A stretch of 64,000 nucleotides of DNA from the NCBI GenBank assembly GCA_965222605.1, contig OZ244960.1, positions 1,984,001-2,048,000 on the forward strand. Reading direction: 5' to 3'. Both the position numbers and the translations under genes were made by a program. This document shows, piece after piece, positions 9,023 to 60,609 of the stretch. The notes under the pieces were generated by a model. It saw only the letters and a list, made by a program, of their open reading frames with translations, made no database searches and was not told the origin of the DNA. Position 1 is the stretch's first letter; each line of letters begins with the position of its first letter. This DNA is from Candidatus Latescibacterota bacterium (GTDB lineage: Bacteria > Latescibacterota > UBA2968).

Positions 9023-12000
9023 ATGAAGCGAATGTGTTTGTTGAGTATGTTTGTCCTTTGCCTGGTATCTCAAGCTTTTGCAGGTACCACGGGAAGGGTT
9101 GTCGGCGTAATAAAAGACGCCACGGGAGAGGTATTACCCGGCGCAAACATCGTCGTAATAGGCACCCGCTTGGGCGCGACCACAGACGCCGATGGTAACT
9201 ATTTTATCCTCAATGTCCCACCCGGCCTGCTGGAAGTGCAGGCGTCAATGGTGGGATATACAAAGGTCACGCAGACCGAAGTTCGCGTAAAAATTGATCA
9301 AACCACAAAACTCAATTTTACATTGACCGAAGAAACCCTCGAAGCTGCCGAAATATTGGTAGTGGCCGAGCGTCCCCCCGTAGAACTGGACCTCACGGCG
9401 AGCAAGCAGACAATGACGACGATGGACCTGGCATTGAGCTGGGCCAATTCCGTGGAAGAGGCTGTGGAAACCCAGTCTGGCGTAGGGGTTCGGGGAAGTA
9501 TCCGGGGCGGATACGGCTTCACCGCCGCCTATATCATAGATGGGGTGGATGTGCGGGACAGCAACACCCAGTCCAGTTTTGTAGTAACCAATACCTCAGC
9601 CATCCAGGAGATGGAAGTGCTCTCGGGGGGATACAATGCGGAATATGGCCAGGCCAACGATGCGATCATCAACATCGTAACGCGGTCGGCACGAGACCGC
9701 TGGCACTGGAATGCAAAGACGCGCATGCGCCCGCGCGGCAAGTACCATTGGGGCCGCAATATTTACAGCGAGGAAAATGTTGAAAACCAGGTGATCACCA
9801 AAGAGTTTTTCGACAACAACGATATGGGTGCTTCCTGGAATAACTACTGGACAGAACAGGGCCAAAATCCTACACCTGAGTTCAACTGGCAAAAGTACCA
9901 GGAATTCACCACGCCACCGGAAGACATGGGCAATTACGCCGATCTGGACCAGTGGGAGTGGGAAGGTGCTACGTTCGGTCCCATCTCCTCCAATATGGAT
10001 CTGTTGTTAAGCGGCAAGTATTTGCGAGGTGTAACCAAGTGGCCGAGCGTTTTCAAATACAGCCCCGAATGGAGCGTGCTTGCCAAATTGAATTACAACC
10101 TGACCCAGAATACCAGAATCACGGCGTCGTTCAATCACCAGGGCACCGATAACAGCGGTCAGCCCAGGTTGACTTATATGTCGTCCGACGATATGGGCGG
10201 TTCGATGGGGAATCTTCCGTCGGGAGGGATACGAACGCCTTTTCAGAGAGAGAAATGGAATTCGAATGGCAACTCCGTAATTACCGGCAATAACTCGCGC
10301 GTGCCTCCTCCTCAGTATATCCGGACGAATGCGGCAATGTTAAAACTGACGCACGTTTTCAGCCCGCGCACATTTGTGGATTTCCGCATTCAGCACTACC
10401 GAATGGATTACGACGCGCATTACGAGAATCTGGATACGAATCCCGTCTTATTCCAGGATCAACTTGATCGAACCCCGGTGTTTTTGGAACCGACGTGGTT
10501 TCCCAGCAGTCCGGTCAGCACTGGCGGACGGCAATGGCAATGGCCGAGAGATAACGCCAAATTGTTCGCCAATACCTCGCGAACATCGATCAAGTTCGAT
10601 CTGACCAGCCAGGTCAATGAACACAATCTGGTCAAGGCGGGCCTATCATTCGAGCCGCAGTATATCGATACCTGGTACGGTGGGCAGTTTGGATCGGCTT
10701 CGCAACCGTTTAACAAAGTGCCAAACCGGGATTATAGCCCGTGGGATTTCACCGCTTATGTACAGGATCAAATTGAAGCCGAAGGCATGATCGTAAATCT
10801 CGGATTGCGTCTGGACATGTTCAACGCCAACCGGAAGGTAAATTACACCCTGTGGGATCCCTACGCGCTGTCGAGCATCACCGATGGAAATATCGCGGGT
10901 GGGATTCTGTCCTTCGACCCGGAGGGTCCCCATGCCGTTGACACGCCGCTTCAGGTCGCGCTCTCACCACGCGTGGGCATCGCGCATCCCATTACCGCGA
11001 GCACTGTATTGCACTTTATGTACGGGCATTTCAATCAGCGTCCGCCCTGGGTAAAAATTGCCGGAAATAAAGCTATCTGGAACCGCGGGGCACCCTCTGA
11101 TCCGAGCGTTCAACTGCCGCCCAACTACGATGCAAATCCCAACGAGGATTACAACTATATCCACTGGTGGGGCACAGGCGGCAATCCGGAGATCGGATTC
11201 GAAAAGATGATCCAGTATGAGGTTGGATTTGATCAGGACATTGCCGGCACACTTGGGTTGGACGTAACCATGTATTACAAAGATGCCAAGGATCTGACAA
11301 GGCGAGGTTTCCGGCAGGGACGGGAGGAAGAAACCGGCAACAGCTCAACGCTTCAGCTCAATTTGTTTATGGATCCCAACAATCCACAGAAGCAAACGCC
11401 TCAGAGTGGGTTTACCAACCGGGGCGCGTGGTCTATGCAAGGTGCGCGCCTCGATGCCCGCGGCCTGGAATTTGAATTGAGCACCAAACGCTGGCCCCAT
11501 GCACAATTCCAGATCAAGTACGACCTATCCTATTCCAGCACGGGCGCTTATGGTCCCATAAGCCTCTATATTCCCATACCACAACCAGATGGTTCGATTA
11601 AGCAACTCGGACGAGATAGATATCAAGGGTCCGGTGAGAACAATCTCGAATTGTGGAATCCACACAATACCTTAAAGTTCAATGCATTGCTCAGCACGCC
11701 CAGCAACTTTGGCCCGGTGATGGGTAACTGGTTCTTGAATATGCACTACACCTACGCTTCGGCGCAGCGATACACCTATCACCCGCACGAAGATACGAGC
11801 ACCGAGCCGCTGAACCGGTCGTGGGAGCCTTATCACCGCACCAATGCGCGCCTCTCCAAGCGTTTCGAACTGGTGGGTGGAATGAAAGGCGAATTCGCAC
11901 TGGATGTACACAATGTCTTCAACAACAAAATCTTGAAACTGTTCGGCGGACAGGATTTGTTCAACTACATTGAAAAAAGCGAAATGCCCGTGGTAAAAGC

Positions 12001-12118
12001 CTCCTATCTGACGCCAGATGGTGCTTCATCCGAATGGGTAGAGCCGAATCAGTGGACGATTTACCGCCCGGATCTGAACCCGAGAGAGTTGTTCTTCTCG
12101 CTGTCGATTGATTATTAG
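9023..12118 (+). CDS. TonB-dependent receptor with N-terminal carboxypeptidase-regulatory-like domain (cassette 1)
   Basis: Signal peptide, AGTTGRVVGVIKDATGEVLPGANI, plug motif SGGYNAEYGQA, GLRLD, LSPRVGIAHPIT, C-terminal aromatic residue (SIDY). Confidence 0.93.
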   Translation: MKRMCLLSMFVLCLVSQAFAGTTGRVVGVIKDATGEVLPGANIVVIGTRLGATTDADGNYFILNVPPGLLEVQASMVGYTKVTQTEVRVKIDQTTKLNFTLTEETLEAAEILVVAERPPVELDLTASKQTMTTMDLALSWANSVEEAVETQSGVGVRGSIRGGYGFTAAYIIDGVDVRDSNTQSSFVVTNTSAIQEMEVLSGGYNAEYGQANDAIINIVTRSARDRWHWNAKTRMRPRGKYHWGRNIYSEENVENQVITKEFFDNNDMGASWNNYWTEQGQNPTPEFNWQKYQEFTTPPEDMGNYADLDQWEWEGATFGPISSNMDLLLSGKYLRGVTKWPSVFKYSPEWSVLAKLNYNLTQNTRITASFNHQGTDNSGQPRLTYMSSDDMGGSMGNLPSGGIRTPFQREKWNSNGNSVITGNNSRVPPPQYIRTNAAMLKLTHVFSPRTFVDFRIQHYRMDYDAHYENLDTNPVLFQDQLDRTPVFLEPTWFPSSPVSTGGRQWQWPRDNAKLFANTSRTSIKFDLTSQVNEHNLVKAGLSFEPQYIDTWYGGQFGSASQPFNKVPNRDYSPWDFTAYVQDQIEAEGMIVNLGLRLDMFNANRKVNYTLWDPYALSSITDGNIAGGILSFDPEGPHAVDTPLQVALSPRVGIAHPITASTVLHFMYGHFNQRPPWVKIAGNKAIWNRGAPSDPSVQLPPNYDANPNEDYNYIHWWGTGGNPEIGFEKMIQYEVGFDQDIAGTLGLDVTMYYKDAKDLTRRGFRQGREEETGNSSTLQLNLFMDPNNPQKQTPQSGFTNRGAWSMQGARLDARGLEFELSTKRWPHAQFQIKYDLSYSSTGAYGPISLYIPIPQPDGSIKQLGRDRYQGSGENNLELWNPHNTLKFNALLSTPSNFGPVMGNWFLNMHYTYASAQRYTYHPHEDTSTEPLNRSWEPYHRTNARLSKRFELVGGMKGEFALDVHNVFNNKILKLFGGQDLFNYIEKSEMPVVKASYLTPDGASSEWVEPNQWTIYRPDLNPRELFFSLSIDY

Positions 12119-12125
12119 CCGAACA

Positions 12126-12158
12126 ACCGGATGTCGTCGCTAATGCGCGACATCCGGT
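12126..12158 (+). promoter_or_regulatory. Intercistronic stem-loop between TBDR1 and cargo gene (partial terminator or mRNA stabiliser)
   Basis: ACCGGATGTCG...CGACATCCGGT inverted repeat. Confidence 0.55.
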
Positions 12159-12199
12159 CTTAGAATTTCCAATATTTTCAAATAACAAAGGAGTTTCTG

Positions 12200-14269
12200 A
12201 TGAAAGCAATACGCAGGCTTCTCCCACTCTGGGTGATGTGCCTCGTGCTGATGTTACCGGAGGTTGTAAATGCTCAGGTACCCGAAAGCCAACTCGTGGG
12301 CAACAACCCAATCGAGTTTACCGCCGGAAGATTGTGGTGGGGCACGAGTACCGCGGCGAATTACGCAGAGACGGCGATTCCCAACGTCATTTCGTATCCC
12401 GGCTATTACCAGGCCACCGACCACATAGATATGATTGCGCCCTGGATATGGATCAACAATCAGGGGCGGCGGGTCAAGCTCAACTTAACAGAACGAAGCA
12501 TTGTGTCTTTTGGCGGTGCTGTACAGCCCATGGTCAACAATTACAATTACAATTTTGTGGGACCAGGCGGCACCAACGAGGCCGAGCAATGGGGCGAAGG
12601 AATCTTCCAGACGTTCAAAATGGATCCAGCCAGCCCTGCCGATGCAATGGGGGCAATGCAGATCACCACCAAGACAATGGTATGGAGCGTCCCCAGGTAC
12701 GATGACTTTGTTATCCACAAAATCAAGATCAAACATGTGGATGACGTACCCTTTGAAGATTTCTACATGTGTTTTCCCGCTCAGGTGCAATACAACAACG
12801 GTCAGCTTGTAAACAACGCCTTCAAGTTCAAGAACGACATGCAATTCGACTGGGATCCCGAACGGAAAATTTTCATATTCTACGACGATGTACAGTGGCC
12901 CACCACGGAAAGCTCGCCCATTTCGTTTGGCATATTCGAGCCGCCGGGAGACGTGACCGGCGATGGTGGCGATCCGGGCAATATCACCGAGTCGGGATCT
13001 CTGGATCGCAGGCTTTACGAACCAGAAGCCAGGGCGTGGGGCATTCTAAATCTGACTTACAACGGTCAGCCCGAAGAACCCCATTACAATATCCTGGCTG
13101 CGGCTGAATCCGGAACAAGGACAGGCAACTTCGCAGGGAGGATGAGCGATGCTCGCGTACCAGCACGCGAATCCGGGCGTCTGTGGTCTGGGCAAGCCTG
13201 GGAACAGGATTTGCTGGCATTTTCACACGATCAGGAGCGGGCGAATTGGATTGACCTCTGGAACGACCCATCTCGCCCCAAAGACGGATCGGCGGATGGC
13301 AATCTCTTCGAGCGATCCCCCATGTTGTATTCCTACATTGGCCCCTACACTTTTCAGCCCGGCGATGAAATTGAACTGATCATCCTCTATTGTTTTGGCG
13401 AGATGGACCGCAATGTTTCGCAACGCGGCGGATTGCAAGCTGTACAACGATATCAGGCAGAAGGTATTGCCGCGTTGAAGCAAAACTGGGATTCTGCCCT
13501 GGAACTGATCGCCAATAACTACAAGTTGCCCGCCAATCAGTATCCGCCTCCAATCGTGGGTTCGCAGCCATTTGTTGATGACGGATTTCCTAAGCTGGAG
13601 GCTGAAGCATTTGCCGACGCCAGTACCGGGTCGCAGGGCTTTGACTTGACCTGGCAGGCCGTGCCGGACAATTACCAGGATCCGGGCACAGGTGAAAATG
13701 ACTTTGCCGGATATCGGATTTACCGGTCAGAGATTCACATCACTGGTCCCTGGGAACAGCTTGCGGAGATTTCCGCTGCGGAAGCCGCAGCTTATAAGCA
13801 GGGCGATAAGATCGTTTTTCGAGCCGAGACAGATCCCGGTATCCCCTTCCGCTTTGCGGTGACCTCCTACGATACCCGCGGACTGGAAAGCGGCATAACG
13901 GCCTATACGTTTTTCGCTACGGAAGCCCCCAAGGCACCTTCAGATGATATGACCCAGATCCGCGTGGTACCCAACCCATTCCGCCAGCGAAGCGGGTTGC
14001 TGGATGCATCTCAGAACAACCGCCTCGCCTTTGTGAATATTCCGGCCAAATGCACCATCCGGATTTATACATTGGCGGGCGATCTGATAAAAATTATTGA
14101 ACACGACGGTTTTGGCGAAACCACCTGGGGCAGCCAGGCCAATGGCAATTATTTGCAGACGGACTTTTCTGAAAGCCCGGCCGCTGGTCTTTACATCTAT
14201 CAAGTAACCTCTCACGTACCGGGACAAGAAGGCCAGTCTCACGTTGGGAAATTCATGATCATTCGATAA
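12200..14269 (+). CDS. Secreted protein with Fn3-like region and T9SS-type C-terminal sorting domain (cassette 1 cargo)
   Basis: Signal peptide; FAGYRIYRS...FAVTSYD Fn3-like segment; C-terminus IRVVPNPF...TIRIYTLAGDLIK...AGLYIYQV...GKFMIIR. Confidence 0.8.
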   Translation: MKAIRRLLPLWVMCLVLMLPEVVNAQVPESQLVGNNPIEFTAGRLWWGTSTAANYAETAIPNVISYPGYYQATDHIDMIAPWIWINNQGRRVKLNLTERSIVSFGGAVQPMVNNYNYNFVGPGGTNEAEQWGEGIFQTFKMDPASPADAMGAMQITTKTMVWSVPRYDDFVIHKIKIKHVDDVPFEDFYMCFPAQVQYNNGQLVNNAFKFKNDMQFDWDPERKIFIFYDDVQWPTTESSPISFGIFEPPGDVTGDGGDPGNITESGSLDRRLYEPEARAWGILNLTYNGQPEEPHYNILAAAESGTRTGNFAGRMSDARVPARESGRLWSGQAWEQDLLAFSHDQERANWIDLWNDPSRPKDGSADGNLFERSPMLYSYIGPYTFQPGDEIELIILYCFGEMDRNVSQRGGLQAVQRYQAEGIAALKQNWDSALELIANNYKLPANQYPPPIVGSQPFVDDGFPKLEAEAFADASTGSQGFDLTWQAVPDNYQDPGTGENDFAGYRIYRSEIHITGPWEQLAEISAAEAAAYKQGDKIVFRAETDPGIPFRFAVTSYDTRGLESGITAYTFFATEAPKAPSDDMTQIRVVPNPFRQRSGLLDASQNNRLAFVNIPAKCTIRIYTLAGDLIKIIEHDGFGETTWGSQANGNYLQTDFSESPAAGLYIYQVTSHVPGQEGQSHVGKFMIIR

Positions 14270-14281
14270 GCGGAGGCTATA

Positions 14282-15355
14282 ATGAAACGTTGTACATTTA
14301 AATGGACAATAATCCCAATCCTTTTGCTCGTGCTGGGATTTGCAAGCGACGGGTTCGCGCAGCGACGATTCGAAGCAGAAGTGGGATCGGGTGTTGCGCC
14401 CCTGCCCTATAGCCGCGTGGGACGGTCGGGCTGGCAATTTGCCAAATTGCCCACCTCGGCGCGCATGGCGAGTCTGGGCGGTATTGCAACGGTGTTGGGC
14501 AAAGCAGATGCCAACGGCGCATTGACCAATCCCGCCGCGATCTCAGACGTAACAAACATCAGCCTTTCGGGCAGCAGCATGAACTGGATTGCCGACATCA
14601 CCTATTATTCTGGTGCTGTGGTCAAAAATTTTGACCAGTGGGGTGTTTTCGGTCTCAGCATCAGTTCCCTCGATTACGGGGAGATGGTACGCACGGAAAA
14701 CCAGGAACTATTTGGTCCCGGTGGAGAAACCCTGGGCCGCACACAGCCTGTTATAGAAGGATTGGGCACGTTTTCAGGTGGTGACCTCGCCGTGGGCATC
14801 AATTACGCCCGGCGCATCACAGACCGCTTGCAGGTGGGCGGCACGGTGAAGTACTTTCAGGAAAACTTAGACAATGCCACCACCGGCAACTGGGCCGTGG
14901 ATATCGGCACGTACTATCACACCGGAATCAAAAGCTTGAGGCTTGCAATGCTCGGGCAGAATTTTGGCCCCGATACCCAGTTCACCAAATACGACGAACA
15001 GATTCAAATTCCGCCATCGCAAGTGCGAATGCCCATGGTATTCAAACTCGGTGCGGCGATTGATCTGATCGAACAATCAGAGGATCAGCCCCATCTCCTC
15101 ACGGTGGCAACCGAGTTTACGCATCCCAATGACGGCGACGAAAAAATGCACGTCGGTGCCGAATACGGATTGCGAAACATGGCCTATATTCGCGGCGGGT
15201 ACCGATTCAATTACGACGAAGAGGGCCTGACCGCCGGTGGAGGCCTTAATCTGAAACGCGATCAATACGGTATCAGCGTGGATTACGCCTATATCGAATT
15301 TGGCCGTCTGGGTTCAGTGCATGTCGTGACGGTCGGATTTGAATTCGGACAGTAA
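14282..15355 (+). CDS. PorV/PorQ-family outer-membrane beta-barrel (cassette 1)
   Basis: QFAKLPTSARMASLG...NPAAI, LAVGINYARRITDRLQVGGTVKY, VDIGTYYHTG, HVGAEY, YIRGGY and VDYAY motifs. Confidence 0.88.
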   Translation: MKRCTFKWTIIPILLLVLGFASDGFAQRRFEAEVGSGVAPLPYSRVGRSGWQFAKLPTSARMASLGGIATVLGKADANGALTNPAAISDVTNISLSGSSMNWIADITYYSGAVVKNFDQWGVFGLSISSLDYGEMVRTENQELFGPGGETLGRTQPVIEGLGTFSGGDLAVGINYARRITDRLQVGGTVKYFQENLDNATTGNWAVDIGTYYHTGIKSLRLAMLGQNFGPDTQFTKYDEQIQIPPSQVRMPMVFKLGAAIDLIEQSEDQPHLLTVATEFTHPNDGDEKMHVGAEYGLRNMAYIRGGYRFNYDEEGLTAGGGLNLKRDQYGISVDYAYIEFGRLGSVHVVTVGFEFGQ

Positions 15356-15380
15356 GACCGCGTTTGCATCCGTCGTAAAC

Positions 15381-15424
15381 AGGGCGCCTGACGGAGTACA
15401 CTCATCCGTCGGCGCCTTAATTTT
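15381..15424 (+). terminator. Terminator-like hairpin after cassette 1
   Basis: AGGGCGCC-T-GACGGA-loop-TCCGTC-GGCGCCTT; paralogous to the hairpin at 28885. Confidence 0.65.
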
Positions 15425-15439
15425 GTACTACAAAAACTC

Positions 15440-15467
15440 TTGACAGGAGGGATTGAGGAAATATATT
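15440..15467 (+). promoter_or_regulatory. Putative sigma70 promoter for the sulfatase / cassette 2 operon
   Basis: TTGACA-N16-TATATT. Confidence 0.5.
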
Positions 15468-15536
15468 GTCGAAAGTATTAAAATTTATTTATATCATAGA
15501 TTAGTGGTCTTGGAAAAAAGGGCTTATCTGATAGAT

Positions 15537-15612
15537 TGGATCGCAGCTAAAATCATGCTGCGATAATAACCAAAACCTTCTGGATCGCGGCTTAAAACCA
15601 TGCCGCGATGAC
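15537..15612. repeat. Two copies of the TGGATC..GATGAC REP-like palindrome
   Basis: TGGATCGCAGCTAAAATCATGCTGCGAT and CTGGATCGCGGCTTAAAACCATGCCGCGATGAC; same family as 4763-4794. Confidence 0.7.
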
Positions 15613-15633
15613 GGCGCTTTTGATAAGTTTGAT

Positions 15634-15697
15634 TGATGTGTAAGATTAATACATTGATGACGGCTCTGTTAATAGTGATGTGTAAGATTAATACATT
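15634..15697. promoter_or_regulatory. Paired 22-bp direct repeats, putative operator sites
   Basis: TGATGTGTAAGATTAATACATT at 15634-15655 and 15676-15697; core ATGT-N11-ACAT dyad; 42-bp period. Confidence 0.65.
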
Positions 15698-15821
15698 TCT
15701 CATTCAGCTTTGAAAGACCATTCGGAAAGGAGAAAGCCTTTTTGATGAGACAGCCGCGCTACTTAAAGAATGTAAGCGCGGTTTTTTTATTTGAAAATCA
15801 CTTTGTTTGCGAGAAACACCG

Positions 15822-17126
15822 ATGAGTCAAAAACCAAATATACTGATCATCACGAATCACGATTCGGGTCGCCACTTCGGGTGTTACGGGGTAGAAACCG
15901 TGCATACCCCGGCGATTGATGCACTGGCCGCTGACGGGCTGAAATTTGAAAACTATTTTGCAACCGTACCGCTTTGCAGCCCGAGCCGCGGGGCAATGCT
16001 CACTGGTCGCTATCCGCAAAGCACCGGGCTGATGGGATTGACGCACGCGCCCTGGCACTGGGCCCTCAACGAGGGAGAACAGCACCTATCGCACATTCTT
16101 CGCGACGCGGGTTACCACACCGCGCTATTTGGGTTGCAGCACGAAGCCGCCGATGTGCAAACACTGGGCTTTGAGGCATTACACGCCCAGCACCGGGATG
16201 AAGGCGGGCGGTGTACAGCCGATGAAGTTGCACGGGCGACAGCCGAATTTCTAAAAGGAGAAGTTCGCGCGCCTTTTTACGCACAGGTGGGATTCTTTGA
16301 AACACATCGCCCCTTTGACTTCGGAGACGTGACACCCGACGACAGCAAAGGGGTTTTTGTACCGCCCTTCCTGGCCGAAAACGAGACGGTAGTCGCGGAT
16401 CTCGCACATTATCAAGGCGCACTCCGAAAAGCGGACGAAGCAGTGGGAATTATTGCAGAGGGACTTGCCGAAAGTGGCCTTGCAGACAATACCATTATCG
16501 TCTTTACCGTAGATCACGGCATCCCCTATCCCCGGGCAAAAGGCCATGTGTACGATCCGGGATTGTCGATTCCCTTAATCGTGCGATGGCCCAACGGTGG
16601 GATTCAAGGCGGTAAAACATGCGACTGGCTCTTGAGCAATGTGGATTTTCTGCCCACCCTGCTGGACCTGATCGGAGTGCCAATACCCGAAAACGTGCAG
16701 GGCGTGTGTTTTTCCGGTGCTCTCGGAAAAGGCGAAGCCGAGCCGCCGCGAGATGCCATCTTCGGATTTATGCAATCGGGCGAATTGCGCTGCATTCGCA
16801 CAAAACACCACAAGTTGATCCGCAATTTTGAACCCCGCAGGCTATTTGCCACGCCTGTAGATGTATCGGTTTCGGTATCTTCCCGGTGGCCGAACACGGC
16901 ATACCTCGTAACATCGGAAGAATGCCCGGCAGTGCAACTGTTCGATTTGCAAAAAGACCCGAATGAGTTTCACAACGTGGCAGAAGATCCGAATTACGCA
17001 GATGTGCGCGCCGAACTGGACGGACGGTTGTGGGCCTGGCTGGAAGAGGTCGGCGACCCAATCCTGAAAGGCTCGGTGCCCACGCCGTATTACCGCCGAC
17101 TGATGGCCGAAGCCGGACGCGGGTAA
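15822..17126 (+). CDS. Sulfatase (formylglycine-dependent, Cys-type), no signal peptide
   Basis: KPNILIITNHD, TPAIDALA, CSPSRGAMLTGRYP, DHGIPYPRAK and LFDLQKDPNEFHN motifs. Confidence 0.95.
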   Translation: MSQKPNILIITNHDSGRHFGCYGVETVHTPAIDALAADGLKFENYFATVPLCSPSRGAMLTGRYPQSTGLMGLTHAPWHWALNEGEQHLSHILRDAGYHTALFGLQHEAADVQTLGFEALHAQHRDEGGRCTADEVARATAEFLKGEVRAPFYAQVGFFETHRPFDFGDVTPDDSKGVFVPPFLAENETVVADLAHYQGALRKADEAVGIIAEGLAESGLADNTIIVFTVDHGIPYPRAKGHVYDPGLSIPLIVRWPNGGIQGGKTCDWLLSNVDFLPTLLDLIGVPIPENVQGVCFSGALGKGEAEPPRDAIFGFMQSGELRCIRTKHHKLIRNFEPRRLFATPVDVSVSVSSRWPNTAYLVTSEECPAVQLFDLQKDPNEFHNVAEDPNYADVRAELDGRLWAWLEEVGDPILKGSVPTPYYRRLMAEAGRG

Positions 17127-17226
17127 TTTTTTTGAGAGGAGGTGGAAACCGGAACTGAGAAAGATGTCGCGTTTTACAAGCATTCGCAGTTGGAAAACAG
17201 TCTCTGAGACTGAAAGGAGGTTCTGA

Positions 17227-17922
17227 ATGAAAAAAATGGCAGTTGTTATAACCTGTGTGGGGTGCTGTCTGGGATCGTGGCAGACAGCAGACGCTCAGGA
17301 AACAGGACAGTGGGGTGTGGGGGCCTTTGTCGATTATGCCAGACCGACACTGGGGCTGGCCGATAGGTGGGCCGGCGTGCCCAAAGGCGGGATAACGCTG
17401 ACCTACACAGCCAACCCGAAGATCTCGGTAGAAGTGGAATATCACTATTCCCTGTTCGGCGATGGGTCCCTGGAGACGACGCCATTTACCTGGGCGGTAG
17501 ATAAGCGGGATTATGTAAGCCCAAGTGCGGTACACGAGATGCGGATTAACAGTTTTTTGTTAAACACCCTCATCCACTTTCAGGAACGCAGCCGCAATAC
17601 GGGCTTTTCGTCCTATTTCGCGATAGGTACCGGGCTTTACGCTTACCGCACGAAAGTTCAGAACCTGATCTTTCCCGGTCAAGCCGTGGAGCCGCTAAAC
17701 CAGTCGCTACACCTGCCCGATCAGACCGATGTTCGCACGGCACTGGGTGTAAATGTGGGCCTGGGCGGAAGTTTGCCCGTCGGCACACAACTCGCCCTGG
17801 ATGTGCGGACGCGCTATAACGTAATTTTCGGTTACCTGAGGCCGCATCTGGCCTGGGGAATTGCTCAGACCTCGTTCTTTCAAATGCTGGATCTGGGCGT
17901 GGGTCTGAAATACTACTTTTAA
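17227..17922 (+). CDS. Small outer-membrane beta-barrel protein
   Basis: Signal peptide, amphipathic strands (SYFAIGTGLY, LGVNVGLGG, DVRTRYN), C-terminal GLKYYF. Confidence 0.8.
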   Translation: MKKMAVVITCVGCCLGSWQTADAQETGQWGVGAFVDYARPTLGLADRWAGVPKGGITLTYTANPKISVEVEYHYSLFGDGSLETTPFTWAVDKRDYVSPSAVHEMRINSFLLNTLIHFQERSRNTGFSSYFAIGTGLYAYRTKVQNLIFPGQAVEPLNQSLHLPDQTDVRTALGVNVGLGGSLPVGTQLALDVRTRYNVIFGYLRPHLAWGIAQTSFFQMLDLGVGLKYYF

Positions 17923-17934
17923 GAGGAGGTTGCA

Positions 17935-20910
17935 ATGAGAAGACTTGTCTTATTGAGTCCTTTTCTGCTACTCCTGATCTGTCTATGTGCAAGAAATGCC
18001 TGGAGCGGTACAACGGGCAAACTCACCGGCGTGGTAGTAGATCAAAGTGGGGAGCCGCTTCCCGGCGCCAACGTGGTGATCAAAGAAATGCGGCGGGGCG
18101 CGAGCACAGATTCGGAAGGCAGATATTTTATTTTATCCGTGGACCCGGGCACATACCGGGTAGAAGCATCTCTGGTGGGCTATCAGTCCATCGCACAAGA
18201 AGATGTGAAGATGATTGTGGATTTTACCACAACAGTGGATTTCCGCCTGGTGGAAATGGCACTTGAAGGGGCAGAAATCGTAGTTGTGGCCGAGCGGCCC
18301 CTTGTTGAGCCGGACAAGACATCGACCAAATACGTGGTGACCTCCGAGGAGATCGAGGCATTGCCAATGGTGCGCAGTGTATCCGATTTTGCCGAGTTGC
18401 AAGGCGGTGTATCAGTAGATGGCAACTGGACCATCCGGGGTGGAGACGCGCCGGATGCCGCGGTGATTATCGACGGAGTCCGCCTGGTGAACAACGACCT
18501 CAGGGGATTTAACCGGTTTATGGGTGTAAACACCAACGCGATTGAGGAGTTGCAGGTCATCACCGGTGGGATGGAAGCGGAATACGGCAACGCGCAGGCC
18601 GGGATTATCCGGATCGTGACGCGAGACGGCAGCAACACATTGAGGGGCCTGGCAGAATACCGCAACACGCCGCCCTCTAAAAAGCACTGGGGACCAAATA
18701 TCTATGAGCATCCGACCGTGCTTCAACAGGATCTCCCGGACAACGCCTCTTTGCTGGACTACACGAGCACCTCAGGTCACGAGGTAGATCTAAGCCTGTC
18801 CGGACCGCTGGTAGGCGGTCTGCAATTTTTTGCCAGCACCAAGTGGGACGGCAGGGCACCGCGGTTTCCCGGGCCAACAACGCGGGTGCCGTGGAATACG
18901 CAGAATCACATGAAGTTAATCCAGCAGGTCAACCCCAATATGAAAGTGCGTGTAGGAGGTCTTTTTGAGCGGCACAAAGGCTATAACGGCGATTCCCGCG
19001 GCGTTGGAAGCAGCTTCCGCAATTTGTTCCTGCCCGATGATTTTGCCACAGCCGGCCACCGCTGGAACCAGGAAGACCTGATTTATTTGTCTGCTACGCA
19101 CACGATCACTTCTCGCACGTTTTACGAAGTGCGACTTTCGCGTTCGCACAGCAGCATAGAGACGGAGAACGGCCCGGAAGCCACCACAAAGTGGACCAGA
19201 AACGGTTATTTCAATATGGACCGCGCCTTTTTCCGCCCAGAGGATTCGGAGCGGATCCGGTGGAATCTGAAGACGGACATGTCCAGCCAGATAACGCGCT
19301 CCAACCTCATTAAAACGGGTCTGGATATTACGTATTACAACGTGTGGTGGACCTGGATTCAGCATTCCACTGAAGCGAACCGCACCATACGGTTTATCGG
19401 CCAGGACCACACCATCGGCGAAGGGGTGCACCCTCTGGAAATCGCTCTGTACCTGCAGGACCGGATCGAATTTGAAGGCATTGTACTCAATGCTGGCATC
19501 CGGTTGGACCGCTTCGACTTCCGCAGGGACGAACCTCATCCCTACCTGTGGGGAACCACGCCGATGTACGTGGGCCTGTTGCGCTTCCGCAATGCGCCGA
19601 CCGAACCGGCCGAGCCGATGATTCGATGGAGCCCGCGCCTGGGCATCTCCCATCCGATTACCGCAAAGTCAACGCTTCGGTTTTTCTACGGCAAGTTCAC
19701 CCAGCCGTTGCGATTTGATCACTGGTATCAGGAAGAGTGGGATTCCGGCACCACGGATGACCGCAATGGAGACGGCGTGGTGCAGGACTACGAATGGGGC
19801 AGTGGATATGTCAAGACACAGGGCCTGCTCCACGGCCACTCGGCATTCGCGCCTTATGAGCAGACCACGAGTTTTGAAGTGGGACTGGACTGGAACTTCG
19901 TGAGCGACTACGTGCTGAACCTGACCACGTATTACAAGAGCGCGATTGACCAGTCGCGCGCGGGCAGCCAGACCAATTATCGCGACCCATTGAAGAACGG
20001 AAAAAACATCGTGGGACCTTCCCACAGGATGGCCGGGTATTCAGAGGATAGTCGCGGGTTTGAAGTGAGCCTGAAAAAGCGGTTCTCTCACCACTTCGCC
20101 TTCCAGGTGGCATATAACGTGCAGTGGGCCACCGAAGACCAGTCGGGCTGGCGCGGCGCTTCCGCCTTCCCGGACTCGCTATTTTTCGCCAGCGGTCTGT
20201 TCTGGCGGCAGCATACCTACGACCTGAATACCGGTGTGGAGACGCCCGTGCCTATGCCCGAATCCGAGATCCAGAAATTCGGCTCTCAGGCGAACAGGAC
20301 ATTGCGCTCCTGGCAGGCTGGCGAGGTCAGCCTGGCGCCTTTCCGCAAGTCTTTCCCCGATCTGATGTATGAAGCACCCAACGGGGGCAAGATGTGGCTC
20401 TTCATGACGCTTTCGGGCGGTCGTGAATCCAGGCCGCGCATCAACGCAGACCAGCGCGCTTTCGGCAGCATCCAGGTGCTGGTATCCACCCCTGCGGACT
20501 TCGGTCCCACAATCGGGGAGATAAATCCGCTGGGCAATTGGCGCTCAAACATCATCTACCGCCTGGATACGGGTACGCCCTTCCAGTACTCGCCCCCCGA
20601 CGGGCCTACGGTGTGGGCAAATTCCCCGCTGAGGACCCGCGCGGACATGAGTCTGGAACGCAGTTTCCAATTGGGCAACCGCTATGAGGCTGTCTTTTAT
20701 ACGGAAATCAACAATTTGTTTAACACCCAGGACTTGCGCAACAACAACCAGTTCGACAACAATCAGCCTCCTTTCGACTGGATGCAGTGGGGTTTGACCA
20801 CGCCGCGTCCGGGCAATGCGAAATTTGAGCAATACGGAGATGAGCGCGTGTTGAACCGGTATATGGGCGCCCCCCGGCATGTGGCGCTGGGTTTGAGGGT
20901 AAAATTCTAA
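17935..20910 (+). CDS. TonB-dependent receptor (cassette 2)
   Basis: GTTGKLTGVVVDQSGEPLPGANV, ITGGMEAEYGNAQAG, NAGIRLD, WSPRLGISHPIT, C-terminal LRVKF. Confidence 0.93.
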   Translation: MRRLVLLSPFLLLLICLCARNAWSGTTGKLTGVVVDQSGEPLPGANVVIKEMRRGASTDSEGRYFILSVDPGTYRVEASLVGYQSIAQEDVKMIVDFTTTVDFRLVEMALEGAEIVVVAERPLVEPDKTSTKYVVTSEEIEALPMVRSVSDFAELQGGVSVDGNWTIRGGDAPDAAVIIDGVRLVNNDLRGFNRFMGVNTNAIEELQVITGGMEAEYGNAQAGIIRIVTRDGSNTLRGLAEYRNTPPSKKHWGPNIYEHPTVLQQDLPDNASLLDYTSTSGHEVDLSLSGPLVGGLQFFASTKWDGRAPRFPGPTTRVPWNTQNHMKLIQQVNPNMKVRVGGLFERHKGYNGDSRGVGSSFRNLFLPDDFATAGHRWNQEDLIYLSATHTITSRTFYEVRLSRSHSSIETENGPEATTKWTRNGYFNMDRAFFRPEDSERIRWNLKTDMSSQITRSNLIKTGLDITYYNVWWTWIQHSTEANRTIRFIGQDHTIGEGVHPLEIALYLQDRIEFEGIVLNAGIRLDRFDFRRDEPHPYLWGTTPMYVGLLRFRNAPTEPAEPMIRWSPRLGISHPITAKSTLRFFYGKFTQPLRFDHWYQEEWDSGTTDDRNGDGVVQDYEWGSGYVKTQGLLHGHSAFAPYEQTTSFEVGLDWNFVSDYVLNLTTYYKSAIDQSRAGSQTNYRDPLKNGKNIVGPSHRMAGYSEDSRGFEVSLKKRFSHHFAFQVAYNVQWATEDQSGWRGASAFPDSLFFASGLFWRQHTYDLNTGVETPVPMPESEIQKFGSQANRTLRSWQAGEVSLAPFRKSFPDLMYEAPNGGKMWLFMTLSGGRESRPRINADQRAFGSIQVLVSTPADFGPTIGEINPLGNWRSNIIYRLDTGTPFQYSPPDGPTVWANSPLRTRADMSLERSFQLGNRYEAVFYTEINNLFNTQDLRNNNQFDNNQPPFDWMQWGLTTPRPGNAKFEQYGDERVLNRYMGAPRHVALGLRVKF

Positions 20911-20953
20911 CGGCGACAACCTTTTGTTGTCTCAATTACAAGGAGGTAGGACA

Positions 20954-23272
20954 ATGCGATTCAACGCACGTCCAATGTTATGGGGCCTTGTGGGAATACT
21001 GGCGCTGATGCTGTGCGCGCCGAGCATTGTGCAGGCCCAGAGCATGGAATATCTCAACCGGAGCAAGCTGTGGGATGGCGTGGTTGAAAACGGTGGATCC
21101 GGGATGATCTTCAACTACCAGAAGATTTACGAGCGGATCGGCCTGGCTTATCCGGGCATGCTACAGTTGAGCGGTTCGTATGGGGCGCGGAGTACCAAAT
21201 GGTACCAGTCCTCTGGTCAGGGCGTCTGGATTCTCCTGAAAGATGGGGGAACCTACGAGGTGTATTCCAGCGGAGGTCCGCGCTACAACAGCGATGGCGT
21301 TTTCCAGGTAGATTATCCCGCAGATCAGAGAGAAGAGCTGCATCAGGGCTATGACAACCAACCCATCAGCGACGACCCCTCGCTTTTGGAAACGCATGGC
21401 TTGCCGAGTTTTGTACAGCCCAACTACTGGGCCGGCGTGGCGCCGCCGAGTGCGCGTCCCGTAAATATCCACAACTGGACCTATGGGGAATATGCGACCC
21501 CGGATAAGGACAGCTATGGCGAGCAGGTCGTGATCGCCCATTGGCGGGCAGGCGATATTCTGGGCACGCGCAAAGGCCGGGTGTGGAGCCATCCAGATTA
21601 CGACGACTTCATCATTTACGAGTTGACATTCGAGAACGTGGGTGACAAACCCTTGAATGACACGTACTTTGCGATGAACAACATCTTTCGGCCCGCCCAG
21701 CCCGGGCATATTTTTACGGGTGGCTATCCGCTCTGGTATGCCGGAAGCAATACGGCTGCCTATGACGACCACTACAAATACACGGGATCGCCGAGCTATG
21801 TGGGGCCTCCAGGTGTATCTGCCGGGGCCATTGCAAAGGCGCGGATGAGCTACAGCTATGATGGGGATTATCCCCTCAGTCCACACGATGACAGGGGAGA
21901 GCCGCTGGTCAAATCGCGTGAAAGCCCGCTCTATCCGCCGCAGATCGACCGCCCCGAAGGCACGCTGCTGTCGGCCGTGTACATAGGCTTTGCCACCATC
22001 GATGCAGACCCCACCGACGGGTTTGCCCACGAGCCGGATGCGGCGTCTAAGTACGTCGCGCCAAAAGTGGCTGAACAGCCTGTTTCGGTCAATTGGTACC
22101 AGGTGCGCAATCGATCGGACTACGACGACCCGCACGAAGCGCAGCACTCGGACGAGCAGATGTACAACATGATTACGGCCTCAACGCCAGCCGACCCCAC
22201 AGAAGTATCCGCATACGCTCACACCCAGGCCTGGGGACCTTATGATCTGGGACCGGGCGAGAAAGCCAAGGTGGTGACGGCTTATGTGGCTGCTCAGGCG
22301 TCTGGTCACGATAAGTACAAAGACCAGGTTCAGCCCTATGATTGGTACTGGATGTTTGAAGGCAAGAAGGACGAAATCGACCTGGGCGAAGAAGTGCTCT
22401 TTAAGCATCTGGAGAGAGCGCAAAGTGCCTACGAACTGGACTACAACGTGCCCAACCAGCCGCCAGACGTGTACTTCGAGATCCGCAGCAATGCCGACGG
22501 CAACTTTGCCGTGAGCTGGTCTGGCGACGTGATGGATGCGCGCGATCCCGACTACACGGGCGCTGAGGCTCAGGACATAGCTGGATTTCGCGTCTATGTG
22601 TCGCGTCAGGCCTTTTTCGGTCCATGGGATCTGGCCGTCGAGGTAAAAACCGATCCCGCCTCGGGTCCCCTCAACCTGCCCGATGGCGTGACCTATGACG
22701 GTTCTACCAATTTCTTTTCCTGGACAGATACCGAGTCGCTGCCCGGCTTTGCCTATTGGTACATTGTGCGGGCTTTTGACAAGGGCCACGACCACTGGAC
22801 AGGTGCAAATGGCAAAACCTTAGCCGACCTGCCCCCCGATGTGCAGGATAATGTGCGCATGGGCCTGGAAGGCGGACACAGTTCGCAAAACCAGATCAGC
22901 TATCACAACGGCGTCCGCCCCGTGGTGATTTCCAGTTCGGCATTCGACCGCATGGAAGTGCCGATTCAAGTGGTGCCCAATCCATTCCATCTGACGGACG
23001 AGGCCGGCCACTACAAGGCATCTAAAAATATGCGATTCACGGGGTTGCCGCGCCATGCCCGCATCAGCATCTACTCTATATCGGGCAACTTGATCGTCAC
23101 CAAAATCCACAACAACGCATCGCAAGGTGAGGCTGTGTGGAAACAGAACACGATGCATTCGGGCAACGTGACCGAGCGACTCGGCAGCGGCGTGTATTTC
23201 TGGGTGGTGGAGTCCTTAGTTCCGGGCAGTGAAGGCAAGACACAGACCGGCACATTGATGATTATTCGATAA
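20954..23272 (+). CDS. Secreted protein with T9SS-type C-terminal sorting domain (cassette 2 cargo)
   Basis: SD AGGAGG, signal peptide; VWSHPDYDDFIIY (cf. VWSVPRYDDFVIH in cargo 1); IAGFRVY; C-terminus IQVVPNPF...RISIYSISGNLI...SGVYFWVV...GTLMIIR. Confidence 0.8.
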   Translation: MRFNARPMLWGLVGILALMLCAPSIVQAQSMEYLNRSKLWDGVVENGGSGMIFNYQKIYERIGLAYPGMLQLSGSYGARSTKWYQSSGQGVWILLKDGGTYEVYSSGGPRYNSDGVFQVDYPADQREELHQGYDNQPISDDPSLLETHGLPSFVQPNYWAGVAPPSARPVNIHNWTYGEYATPDKDSYGEQVVIAHWRAGDILGTRKGRVWSHPDYDDFIIYELTFENVGDKPLNDTYFAMNNIFRPAQPGHIFTGGYPLWYAGSNTAAYDDHYKYTGSPSYVGPPGVSAGAIAKARMSYSYDGDYPLSPHDDRGEPLVKSRESPLYPPQIDRPEGTLLSAVYIGFATIDADPTDGFAHEPDAASKYVAPKVAEQPVSVNWYQVRNRSDYDDPHEAQHSDEQMYNMITASTPADPTEVSAYAHTQAWGPYDLGPGEKAKVVTAYVAAQASGHDKYKDQVQPYDWYWMFEGKKDEIDLGEEVLFKHLERAQSAYELDYNVPNQPPDVYFEIRSNADGNFAVSWSGDVMDARDPDYTGAEAQDIAGFRVYVSRQAFFGPWDLAVEVKTDPASGPLNLPDGVTYDGSTNFFSWTDTESLPGFAYWYIVRAFDKGHDHWTGANGKTLADLPPDVQDNVRMGLEGGHSSQNQISYHNGVRPVVISSSAFDRMEVPIQVVPNPFHLTDEAGHYKASKNMRFTGLPRHARISIYSISGNLIVTKIHNNASQGEAVWKQNTMHSGNVTERLGSGVYFWVVESLVPGSEGKTQTGTLMIIR

Positions 23273-23290
23273 TGAGGAGGAGGCCAAAAC

Positions 23291-24280
23291 ATGAATAGAA
23301 AGACCCTCTTAATCGGACTGACTATGGCCCTTATGGTCGGGCTTTCGGCCCCTTCCGCATTGGCCGAAGAAGTCAAGTCCGGTTTTCGGCGCACAGCTTC
23401 TACCGGCTTTGGATTCCTGCTGGTGGGGCAGAGCGCTCGGGCCACGGCGATGGGCGAAGCCTATATGCCTATTGCCAACGATATCAACGCGATCTTCTGG
23501 AATCCCGCGGGGCTGGTCGCCATCGAACGCGGGGCTTTTTCCGCCACGTACACGCGCTGGCTGGTCAACTCGAAGCTGTATTCGGGGGCCGTGTCCTATA
23601 ATATCCCATTCGGGACATTGGGCGTCAGCGTCATTTCGTTTGCACCTGAGCAATTTGAAGAGACTACGATCTTCGAGCCACAGGGCACGGGCGAGATGGT
23701 CAACGGCAATGGCACGGCTATCGGGCTTGTATTTGCCAAGCGCCTGACCAATAAATTGTCGTTTGGGTTGGAGATGCGCTACTTGCAGCAGAACCTGCAC
23801 AGAGAACAGATCACCCACGTCGATTTCGGGGTGTCCAGCATGTTTGCCACCGGCTTTGCCAGCAGCCGCATCGGCATGTCGCTGAAAAACTTCGGCGCAG
23901 ACAAAGCCGTCGTGACCGACGATCCATTCCGGATGCCAATGGTATTCAATTTTGGTGCCGCCATGGAAATTATCGGCAATTTGGGCGATCCCATTTCATT
24001 GACATTATCGCTGGTCAATACCTATGATCTGGAGGTAGAGAAAGAGCAGTTCAAAGTGGGCACAGAGCTGTGGTTGCAAAATATGCTGGCCCTGCGCGCG
24101 GGCTATAAGTTCGACAAAGGTCTCTTTGGATACAACAGAGATATCTATAGCTGGTCTATTGGCGCGGGGGTAAAGCAGAGTTTCGCCGGGCGGAGTCTCA
24201 CGGTTGACTTCTCGTATGCGGCCGTGGATGAAGTCGCGTTTTCCGCGCCGCTGCGATTGACACTTAGCGGGACATTCTAA
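23291..24280 (+). CDS. PorV/PorQ-family outer-membrane beta-barrel (cassette 2)
   Basis: FLLVGQSARATAMGEAY...IFWNPAGL, LALRAGY, VDFSY, C-terminal F. Confidence 0.9.
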   Translation: MNRKTLLIGLTMALMVGLSAPSALAEEVKSGFRRTASTGFGFLLVGQSARATAMGEAYMPIANDINAIFWNPAGLVAIERGAFSATYTRWLVNSKLYSGAVSYNIPFGTLGVSVISFAPEQFEETTIFEPQGTGEMVNGNGTAIGLVFAKRLTNKLSFGLEMRYLQQNLHREQITHVDFGVSSMFATGFASSRIGMSLKNFGADKAVVTDDPFRMPMVFNFGAAMEIIGNLGDPISLTLSLVNTYDLEVEKEQFKVGTELWLQNMLALRAGYKFDKGLFGYNRDIYSWSIGAGVKQSFAGRSLTVDFSYAAVDEVAFSAPLRLTLSGTF

Positions 24281-24313
24281 TGCGCTCATTCGCATAAACG
24301 CCCATGCATTTCT

Positions 24314-24350
24314 GGCGGCGGTCCAGTAAGGATAGGGCCGCCGCCTCTTT
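24314..24350 (+). terminator. Intrinsic terminator after cassette 2
   Basis: GGCGGCGGTCC-loop-GGGCCGCCGCC-TCTTT. Confidence 0.7.
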
Positions 24351-24380
24351 ATTGATCGGCTCGATATTAAAGGATCTGTC

Positions 24381-30343: not shown

Positions 30344-30403
30344 CGGTCTTTTGCCGTATATACTCCGTATTCGTTTTATATCTCTTCCTTTTTTATTCAA
30401 TTC

Positions 30404-34932: not shown

Positions 34933-34991
34933 TAATAATTGTATAATCCTCAGCTATGCTCAGTAATGGTAAAACACAGTGGAGGCCCAAT

Positions 34992-46389: not shown

Positions 46390-46474
46390 CCCCCGCCTCA
46401 GTACCAATCTTAGTTGATGAGCATTTAAAAAATGGACGAAAACTTGACAGCCTGCACAGTTTATGGAGGATGTG

Positions 46475-52286: not shown

Positions 52287-53234
52287 ATGTATTCAAGATT
52301 CATTATGAGAACTCTGGGGAGTTTTTCAATTCTCTTTTTTTGTAATACACAAAATATAATGGGGAGTGAGTTGAATATAGCGGCAGAGATCGGAGATACC
52401 ACTAAAGTAAAAAACTTACTAAAAAAAGGCGTAAATATAAATGAGCGAGATAGATTCGGACGAACACCTCTCATTTATGCTGCCCTGAATGGTCATGATC
52501 GCATCATAAAAATGCTACTTGAATCTCATGCTGATATTCATGCCAAAGATCATTTCGACCAAACGGCATTCATTGCAGCAGTCACTGGAGGACATGTGAA
52601 CACCGCTGAAATTTTGCTAAAAAATGGTGCTAATCCATCGGCTCCCAATGGTGAGGATATGCTTCCTATATTTATAGCCTTTGAACGGGAAGACTTCGAA
52701 ATGGTAGATTTATTATTAAAATATGGAATCAAAATCAACACTATAGACAAAAAAGGAAGGACAGTTCTTCAGAAAATTATTGAATCAAATGATGCAGAAC
52801 TCGTGCGAACAATTTTGAGACGTGGCATAGATGAGAGATATATCGTACATCTGGCCGCTGGCGTGGGTGACACAACATTGTTAAAGATATTGTTAAAAAA
52901 TAAAATAGATATTGACAAAAGGGATCCATTGGAAAGAACGCCATTGCTATTCGCTCTATTATATGACCGCACGCAATGTGCTAAAATGCTATTGGACCAG
53001 GGCGCAGACTTTTCGCTTAGAGATAATGATGGTAAAACGCCATTAATGGTGGCTGCAGAACGAAAAAATATCGAAGGCCTGAAAATTCTTCTGCATGCAG
53101 GAGCAGATGTATTCGCACAAGATAATCGGGGCTGGCTTGCTTTAACATACGCAGCATTTGTTGGTAATAGGCATAATAGCGATAAGTGTACAAAACTGCT
53201 CAAATCTGTTATGGAGGATAGAAGGATTAGATAG
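52287..53234 (+). CDS. Ankyrin-repeat protein
   Basis: Multiple ankyrin repeats (GRTPLIYAA, ERTPLLFAL, GKTPLMVAA). Confidence 0.92.
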   Translation: MYSRFIMRTLGSFSILFFCNTQNIMGSELNIAAEIGDTTKVKNLLKKGVNINERDRFGRTPLIYAALNGHDRIIKMLLESHADIHAKDHFDQTAFIAAVTGGHVNTAEILLKNGANPSAPNGEDMLPIFIAFEREDFEMVDLLLKYGIKINTIDKKGRTVLQKIIESNDAELVRTILRRGIDERYIVHLAAGVGDTTLLKILLKNKIDIDKRDPLERTPLLFALLYDRTQCAKMLLDQGADFSLRDNDGKTPLMVAAERKNIEGLKILLHAGADVFAQDNRGWLALTYAAFVGNRHNSDKCTKLLKSVMEDRRIR

Positions 53235-60584: not shown

Positions 60585-60609
60585 TGTCAACCAAAACGGG
60601 TCAAGTCCA
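60585..60609. mobile_element. Orphan IS3-like terminal inverted repeat
   Basis: Reverse complement TGGACTTGACCCGTTTTGGTTGACA resembles IS3-family ends; no partner or transposase in the window. Confidence 0.4.

Follow-up and report, generated by a model that had tools for sequence, protein, structure and literature searches.

Which surface protein, if any, serves a TonB-dependent receptor when no SusD-like lipoprotein is encoded beside it? The question is raised by a gene cassette that occurs twice in a 64,000-nucleotide stretch of the genome of a Candidatus Latescibacterota bacterium (contig OZ244960.1, positions 1,984,001 to 2,048,000 of the forward strand; this whole stretch is called the window here), in which the gene for a TonB-dependent receptor is followed by that for a secreted protein, which we call the partner, and by that for a beta-barrel of the PorV family. 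An earlier note on this DNA had proposed that each secreted protein is exported through a type IX secretion system (T9SS), stays bound to its own barrel and acts as the substrate-binding lid of the adjacent receptor. Our analysis leads to a similar model: each cassette would be an uptake unit resembling SusC/SusD, with a surface partner that is exported by the T9SS and held by a private barrel. Based on sequence comparisons, we put the chances that this model is right at about even.

The order of receptor, secreted protein and PorV-family barrel was found twice on the forward strand, exactly where the earlier note had placed it, with the list of open reading frames (ORFs) and the family scans in agreement. 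In cassette 1, the receptor (9023..12118, 1031 aa; CarboxypepD_reg 70.3 bits, Plug 27 bits) consists of a signal peptide, a CarboxypepD_reg domain, a TonB-box-like AEILVVAERP, a plug, a long divergent barrel and a final Y. The partner that follows (12200..14269, 689 aa) is a paralogue of the protein at 20924-23272 and reaches no Pfam or NCBIfam cut-off; it has a Sec signal peptide without lipobox, an N-terminal domain (N-domain) of ~440 aa, an Fn3-like domain and a putative divergent T9SS-type C-terminal domain (CTD) that takes up the last ~105 aa (VVPNPF...FMIIR). The third gene (14282..15355, 357 aa) encodes a PorV/PorQ-family 14-strand-type barrel (NF033709 173.5 bits, cut-off 90). Cassette 2 opens with a gene for a small outer-membrane protein (OMP) beta-barrel (17227..17922, +, 231 aa; Pfam OMP_b-brl 34.1 bits), followed by a receptor (17935..20910, 991 aa; CarboxypepD_reg 67.8 bits, Plug 40.5 bits) for which only weak matches were found among PDB sequences. 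Its partner gene (20954..23272) encodes 772 aa from ATG; the ORF itself opens at TTG 20924 (782 aa), and the ATG is the likely start, given that the databases contain a 96%-identical protein of just this length. This partner is again predicted to contain a signal peptide, an N-domain (~460 aa), an Fn3-like domain (AGFRVY) and a divergent CTD (VVPNPF...LMIIR), and its barrel lies at 23291..24280 (329 aa; NF033709 165.9 bits, Pfam PorV 37 bits). Cassettes 1 and 2 are 27% identical in their receptors (E 5e-83), 24% in their partners (E 2e-18) and 29% in their barrels (E 9e-31), by which measure all three gene pairs are old paralogues. The two partners are therefore distant homologs, as had been claimed, and their pairwise alignment contains the motifs given for them (VWS.P.YDDF, AG[YF]R[IV]Y and VVPNPF...MIIR). 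The description as a three-gene cassette holds for both triplets but falls short for cassette 2, which has the small beta-barrel as a fourth gene.

By family membership, the large proteins are TonB-dependent receptors: both exceed the Plug cut-off (23.9 bits) and carry a TonB-box-like EI(L/V)VVAERP. Among all 28 cassette receptors of the genome (see below), 26 end in F, W or Y, the other two in L and M. The window receptors match none of the Pfam barrel families, and with the SusC/RagA model TIGR04056 they score 63.9 and 57.3 bits against a cut-off of 368.25, over model positions 2-207 of 981 only. Both window barrels are members of the PorV/PorQ family NF033709, and a profile of 40 barrels matches the solved PorV of F. 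johnsoniae (6h3i_F, E 1.5e-27). Neither barrel reaches an equivalog cut-off (PorV NF033710, 250 bits; PorQ NF033711, 220 bits): barrel 1 is nearer PorQ (110.2 bits, with 39.1 for PorV), and barrel 2 scores 73.4 bits for PorV and 54.1 for PorQ. To call them PorV-family barrels is thus correct in that they are true PorV homologues, but they are equivalogs of neither PorV nor PorQ. Elsewhere in the genome (C1:4602890-4609629), genes for two more PorV/PorQ-family barrels, scoring 113.9 and 67.6 bits, take turns with genes for unannotated proteins (~310-416 aa); no TonB receptor is encoded near them, and each barrel may form a private pair with its neighbouring cargo.

The link between partner and T9SS depends on the tail of the partner. 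The partners of the genome start with Sec-type signal peptides, and a lipobox was not found in 27 of the 28. Scanning the 28 sequences against Pfam and NCBIfam gave no family above cut-off, and the weak matches are confined to the last ~100 residues. The matched models are TIGR04183 (5/28, best 18.7 bits with a cut-off of 23; that of PF18962 is 27), the type-B CTD model PF13585 CHU_C (5/28, best E 0.0015; 17.4 bits for the window protein, cut-off 27) and PorZ (7/28; these matches map to its CTD, at about positions 661-757 of the 757 in the model). A single partner tail weakly matches the PorU CTD. For the partner of cassette 2 (20924-23272), CHU_C and TIGR04183 are the only matches, both sub-threshold. 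When 27 partner tails were aligned as a profile with 10 canonical type-A CTDs taken from this genome using hhalign, the match had a probability of 97% (E 1e-10, 70 columns). Judged by this profile comparison, the tail is most probably a divergent T9SS CTD, in line with its earlier description as a T9SS CTD. The tail is also the best-conserved part of the partner (mean column identity 40% vs 22% for the whole protein), and the cassette tails have in common with the genome's PorU-like tail the motif RIYTLAG.LV and an ...IVYR or basic I(I/V)(Y)R end; the ordinary type-A cargo tails of the genome end in LLK. Upstream of the tail, the Fn3-like domain gave the only weak hit of the whole-partner profile in the PDB (3mpc, E 0.025).

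The N-domain, of ~450 aa, belongs to a large uncharacterised family, for which 1143 cluster representatives were found with E ≤0.001, 474 of them with E ≤1e-10. Among its distant relatives, 13 of 30 scanned carry a canonical PF18962 tail above cut-off; of the long ones, 12/14 do so, and these also contain BNR/sortilin, beta-helix or RCC1 domains. In these relatives the N-domain is thus extracellular, and it can be regarded as a module that proteins exported by the T9SS have in common. Database homologues of the partner itself number 13, with only two named, 'fibronectin type III domain-containing protein' and 'hypothetical protein'. These results bear on a quite different explanation, in which a hydrophobic or amphipathic substrate passes through the barrel, a channel of the FadL type working beside the receptor, and the tail is an Ig-like domain unrelated to the T9SS. 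Indeed, the PorV family is FadL-like, barrel 2 has a sub-threshold match to Toluene_X (25.8 vs 29.7 bits), and the tails stay under the CTD cut-offs when scored singly. However, the barrels score far above the PorV/PorQ cut-off and match a solved PorV, the tails match both the type-A CTDs of the genome by profile and the CTDs of PorZ and PorU, and relatives of the N-domain carry canonical CTDs. We therefore regard a FadL-type channel as very improbable.

The host genome, a single contig of 6.34 Mb (98.7% complete) from a sponge-associated member of the Latescibacterota, encodes several parts of the T9SS that export of the partner would require. SprA is present (631.7 bits, cut-off 200), as are a PorU-like sortase of 1896 aa (316 bits, cut-off 420) and 14 TIGR04183 tails above cut-off, which represent ordinary type-A cargo; the best PorV candidate (C1:1504623-1505687; 161 bits, cut-off 250) adjoins a T9SS-dependent M6-like protein. 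The expectation of a T9SS in this genome is supported by SprA, the PorU-like sortase and the cargo, but not for the motor and ring, as GldK, GldL, GldM and GldN were not detected by their Bacteroidota-trained models. Candidates for GldK were rejected as generic FGE-sulfatase-type domains, the best of them without L/M/N neighbours.

The undetected motor is one of the arguments for reversing the direction of transport. The receptor could work outward, as is reported of the TonB-dependent transporter Oar and the protease PopC in Myxococcus, and be required for secreting the adjacent protein, with the PorV-like barrel as a helper. Oar-type transporters and the cassette receptors have the same architecture, about 1000 aa long with a CarboxypepD_reg domain at the N-terminus, and with GldL/M/N undetected as an energy source another energised outer-membrane protein would be welcome. 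Yet the Sec signal peptide, the T9SS-type tail, the PorV-family neighbour and SprA already add up to a complete known route, the polytopic membrane protein that is often encoded nearby (see below) suits import, and 28 separate exporters, one per protein, would be without precedent. An outward receptor is therefore, in our judgment, among the least credible of the explanations considered. According to an extract of the description of Oar/PopC in Myxococcus xanthus (PMC6434023), the resemblance is that of a large CarboxypepD_reg-type TonB transporter functionally tied to a secreted protein; unlike that system, the cassette partner combines a signal peptide with a CTD and is encoded next to a PorV-like barrel, and Pfam detected no Oar-type barrel family in the receptors.

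Returning to an import unit with a T9SS-exported partner, we sought SusD by family models. No SusD family was matched by any window ORF scanned or by any of the 28 partners, confirming that the cassettes lack a SusD-like lipoprotein; genome-wide, PF14322 gave no match and PF07980 a single one. The name SusCD-independent therefore fits these cassettes, the one SusD_RagB-like hit of the genome lying elsewhere and being interrupted by an in-frame stop. This locus (C1:3841329-3845574, 33 bits, in-frame TAG) adjoins the gene for a receptor of 974 aa that matches Plug strongly, and may be a decaying classical SusC/SusD pair.

The three genes have multiplied together. A phmmer search of a six-frame ORF set of the whole genome identified 28 members of the partner family, 28 receptors of one subfamily and 37 PorV-like ORFs; 8 other receptors matched weakly and are unrelated. 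Every one of the 28 partners sits between a receptor of the subfamily and a PorV-like gene on one strand, and all 28 receptors are used in this way; the gap between receptor and partner is ≤100 bp in 26/28 units, and that between partner and barrel in 27/28. This 28/28 linkage rules out chance or annotation artefact as the origin of the triplet. Nine PorV-like genes lie outside cassettes, one of which is the best housekeeping PorV candidate, and NF033709 matched 40 places genome-wide, 34 of them above cut-off. With 40 Plug-domain matches in the genome, about two thirds of the receptors belong to cassettes, and the 28 units occupy about 3% of the genome. The small OMP beta-barrel forms a family of 22 members, each of which (22/22) is encoded upstream of a cassette receptor, on its strand and at a distance of 0-100 bp; cassette 2 is among the 22 units that have it, and cassette 1 falls in a minor clade of 6 units that do not. 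Two further cassettes (C1:552733-559391 and 4050026-4056687) are near-identical, at 98-100% on the protein level, so the family is still duplicating.

Congruence of the trees of the three genes, which the earlier note had suggested as a check, is high. Over the 28 cassettes, Mantel correlations were 0.93 for receptor and partner, 0.91 for partner and barrel and 0.90 for receptor and barrel, with 0/5000 permutations as high, and inside the 22-member clade r remained at 0.83-0.88. When the partner was divided into its parts, partial correlations were 0.60 for N-domain and receptor given the barrel (0/2000) and 0.39 for tail and barrel given the receptor (2/2000); the crossed pairs gave 0.35 (N-domain and barrel) and 0.30. 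These values are weak but lean toward what the model predicts, an N-domain fitted to the receptor and a tail fitted to the barrel, and are a hint only, considering that kin share history and that the domains differ in length.

The cassette is not confined to this genome. For the purpose of finding related loci, one genome per species was scanned with 8 closer partner sequences as queries, and 66 loci were kept of 319 stretches that encode relatives. The closest of these (95-97% identity) are metagenome-assembled genomes of Candidatus Latescibacterota, and others are labelled Gemmatimonadota, Neomarinimicrobiota and KSB1. Using hidden Markov models of the families, a receptor was found upstream in 62/63 kept loci whose contig shows that side, and a barrel downstream in 64/66. 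The N-domain occurs in 59 of 151 sampled genomes of the phylum, being present throughout its own family (29/29) and the sister family (19/19) and in 1/64 genomes of another family. The earlier assignment to a lineage of the Fibrobacterota-Chlorobiota-Bacteroidota (FCB) group outside the Bacteroidota is thus right, the phylum being Latescibacterota. Of the ways in which the proposal might have failed, those that were tested did not occur: SprA is encoded in the genome, and the synteny of the triplet is kept across phyla. Five loci (L116, L123, L126, L127 and L131) have an extended operon form, in which two conserved genes without annotation (~330-518 aa and ~450 aa) come after the cassette, and behind them a second gene of the partner family; L127 and L131 are labelled Neomarinimicrobiota.

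Sequences of the cassette were also found in RNA libraries. Part of cassette 2 is present in 20 public runs, 8 of which are recorded as RNA, and 4 of these 8, all from a single study, are labelled sponge metagenome. Contigs from four RNA-library runs of three studies were mapped to the window, of which they cover about 16.4-24.5 kb. In 2 runs, single contigs span all four genes of cassette 2: an 8119-nt contig corresponds to 16397-24509 and a 10,799-nt contig to 15579-26374, both ~95% identical to the window. Contigs of 99% identity bridge the junctions between receptor and partner and between partner and barrel. Over cassette 1 (9023-15355), these four runs supply few contigs or none, and for the uncovered part this does not count as a finding.

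The observed basis of the model thus consists of the gene families, their linkage and co-divergence, the homology of the tails to CTDs, the presence of SprA, a PorU-like protein and PorV, the presence in RNA libraries and the occurrence in several phyla; from it we infer an export route, retention of the tail, binding by the barrel, contact with the receptor, the direction of transport and the existence of a substrate, as follows. The TonB-dependent receptor would be the energised import channel. The partner would enter the periplasm by its Sec signal peptide and then cross the outer membrane via SprA, which would recognise the divergent CTD. Its tail would be neither cleaved nor transferred to a lipid, so that the partner would stay on the surface, held non-covalently by the PorV/PorQ-type barrel encoded downstream. 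Such anchoring is modelled on that of PorZ by PorQ, of PorU by PorV and of type-B cargo by PorP/SprF. The variable N-domain would then bind substrate beside the receptor, taking the role that the lipoproteins SusD and SGBP (surface glycan-binding protein) have in Bacteroidota, with the small beta-barrel as a putative fourth outer-membrane component in 22/28 units, and a DUF6785/6784 membrane protein encoded nearby may take the substrate across the inner membrane. By analogy, the cassette probably does what SusC/SusD does in Bacteroides.

The anchoring in this model has precedents. As stated in an extract of one review (PMC10202324), the CTD of PorU remains bound to PorV and that of PorZ to PorQ, and cognate PorV-like barrels may shield a CTD from cleavage. 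For type-B cargo, the anchor is an adjacent PorP-like barrel (PMC9143113), and PMC12578637 has the FadL-type barrel BamG holding a surface protein in the BAM complex of Bacteroidota. With SusC/SusD (RagA/RagB) and the 'utilisomes' the cassettes share a receptor gene beside a surface-partner gene, a pair that is multiplied within the genome (28 units), and a frequent location beside sulfatases, sugar-acid enzymes and LacI/GntR regulators. They differ in that the receptors fail the SusC/RagA model (57-64 bits vs 368), that the partner has no SusD match, is no lipoprotein (27/28 without lipobox) and has a T9SS-type tail, and that the PorV-like barrel is obligatory as a third gene, with the small barrel often present as a fourth. 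With the PorQ-PorZ and PorV-PorU pairs in the T9SS attachment complex of Porphyromonas gingivalis (PMC10202324), they share the pairing of a PorV/PorQ-family barrel with a CTD protein, and the CTDs of PorZ and PorU are the best single-sequence hits of the cassette tails. Unlike those single housekeeping pairs of the secretion machinery, the cassettes are 28 private pairs tied to receptors, with barrels that stay under the PorV and PorQ equivalog cut-offs; retention of their tails is suggested by analogy. In type-B systems such as SprB-SprF and PG1035-PorP (described in a portion of PMC9143113), the cargo gene likewise adjoins its own FadL-type barrel gene, and the barrel anchors the cargo on the surface with its CTD uncleaved. 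Here the cassettes differ in that their barrels are of the PorV/PorQ family by NF033709, that their tails match type-A CTDs by profile and CHU_C weakly, and that nothing ties them to gliding; their association with a TonB receptor is new.

Several results weigh against the model of an uptake unit. No single partner tail among the 28 scanned reaches a curated CTD cut-off, and the tail profile has 0 matches among PDB sequences at E ≤1. The N-domain profile likewise has 0 matches in the PDB at E ≤10 and shows no recognisable fold or ligand-binding family, for which reason its role in substrate binding is an analogy. GldL, GldM and GldN are unmatched in the genome by models that are Bacteroidota-trained and were silent in every control genome too, so their absence is not proven by it. 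Linkage and co-divergence are expected of any genes that duplicate together and imply no physical complex, and a contig from an RNA library is not a transcript, since such libraries may contain DNA, so transcription is not proven by it. The families flanking the cassettes, which comprise sulfatases, PhyH dioxygenases, GFO/IDH/MocA oxidoreductases, a heparinase II/III-like protein and sugar-acid enzymes as well as LacI/GntR/ROK regulators, peptidases, transposases and housekeeping genes, are too mixed to indicate a substrate. Finally, partner-family genes do not always come with their neighbours: the central copy of L116 has neither receptor nor barrel, L134 lacks the barrel, and in L123, L126, L127 and L131 a full cassette is followed, at a distance of a few genes, by an extra member of the partner family that has neither receptor nor barrel to itself.

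The last point in particular fits an alternative with the same export and anchoring but no receptor complex, in which the partner is a surface enzyme or adhesin and shares an operon with the receptor through a common substrate pathway. The evidence for export and anchoring serves both readings equally, contact with the receptor is a prediction, distant relatives of the N-domain occur in large T9SS cargo (beta-helix, BNR) where no receptor link was seen, and the copies without a receptor of their own (those of L116, L123, L126, L127 and L131) would be at ease with it. On the other hand, all 28 partners and all 28 subfamily receptors are adjacent one-to-one, the divergence of the N-domain follows the receptor over the barrel (partial r 0.60 vs 0.35), and a catalytic family is undetectable in the partners. 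We consider a surface protein without receptor contact unlikely, though a serious candidate.

Going back to the uptake unit, a search of the literature (full text, without supplements) did not find a module of receptor, CTD-tailed partner and PorV-like barrel described. In the part of the 2015 Latescibacteria genome paper that was available, Plug proteins were predicted to take up vitamin B12 and iron only. One review, in the portion available, restricts CTD proteins to Bacteroidota (PMC10202324), and another places the T9SS in the FCB superphylum. What the present analysis adds is the 28-fold expansion with its one-to-one pairing, the co-divergence statistics and the fourth gene, as well as N-domain relatives that carry canonical CTDs, a motor that went undetected and the presence in RNA libraries. 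Taking the model one step further, and with a confidence that falls somewhat short of an even chance, we suggest that several FCB phyla outside the Bacteroidota (Latescibacterota, Gemmatimonadota, Marinimicrobia and KSB1) have a modular answer of their own to SusCD, in which the extracellular subunit that binds substrate for a TonB-dependent importer is no lipoprotein but a T9SS-exported protein, lodged by its uncleaved tail in a private PorV/PorQ-type barrel; this would be a three- or four-barrel-and-partner machine, which in the present genome would come in 28 specificities and account for most TonB-dependent uptake. If true, this would amount to a general rule for SusD-free polymer feeding in large groups without cultured members, among them Latescibacterota, Gemmatimonadota, the marine SAR406/Marinimicrobia and KSB1, and annotators could count equivalents of polysaccharide utilisation loci ('PUL equivalents') in those phyla. 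It would also mean that the T9SS and PorV-family barrels not only secrete and shuttle proteins but serve as permanent building blocks of transporters, extending the idea, raised for PorZ-PorQ and type-B cargo, that cognate barrels protect and anchor uncleaved CTDs. The T9SS, here without a recognisable PorKLMN motor, would then be mainly a device for assembling nutrient receptors.

Several genes around the cassettes may be related to their function. Between the two cassettes lies a sulfatase gene (15807..17126, +; Pfam Sulfatase 140.4 bits, SGSH_C 73.5 bits), whose product is a possible substrate-processing enzyme. Directly after cassette 2 follows the gene for a polytopic membrane protein of the DUF6785/DUF6784 type (24381..26345, +, 654 aa, ~11 hydrophobic segments; Pfam DUF6785 274.5 bits), a candidate inner-membrane permease that is only loosely linked to the cassettes: of 56 full-length DUF6785 copies in the genome, 23 lie within 7 kb of a cassette, where ~5 would be expected for a stretch of genome of that total size; 6 of the 23 are directly downstream of a cassette. 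The next gene encodes a TPR and GWxTD-domain protein (26368..28845, +, 825 aa; TIGR04514 GWxTD 55.2 bits). DUF6785/DUF6784 genes, of which the window has two (24381-26345 and 30215-32401), are often directly followed by such a TPR/GWxTD gene, and the pair looks like a second expanded two-gene module. A scan of the window for promoters and terminators gave counts that did not rise above the level of shuffles (13 vs 14.4; 24 vs 21.3), and the strongest hairpin (24455-24485) was set aside, since it sits within the called DUF6785 frame.

The remainder of the window contains mobile and expanded genes of other kinds. Within 30 kb there are six paralogous genes for ~800-aa permeases with MacB_PCD and FtsX domains (34956-37427, 40316-42751, 42782-45193, 46463-48835, 60584-63058 and 63129-63998), and no ATPase was found beside them among the window ORFs scanned. 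Two genes of the IS605 OrfB/TnpB type with a Cas12f1-like TNB domain are located at 29169-30302, between the two DUF6785 genes, and at 55796-56914, and a Mutator-family transposase at 58576-59841. An unusual fusion is encoded on the reverse strand (33525-34682), in which an extracytoplasmic function (ECF)-type sigma factor with regions 2 and 4 is joined to a C-terminal 3-keto-disaccharide hydrolase (DUF1080-type). A further gene (52287-53234) encodes an ankyrin-repeat protein, to be set beside the sponge-metagenome label of the four RNA runs that contain part of cassette 2, and ankyrin repeats are typical of sponge symbionts.

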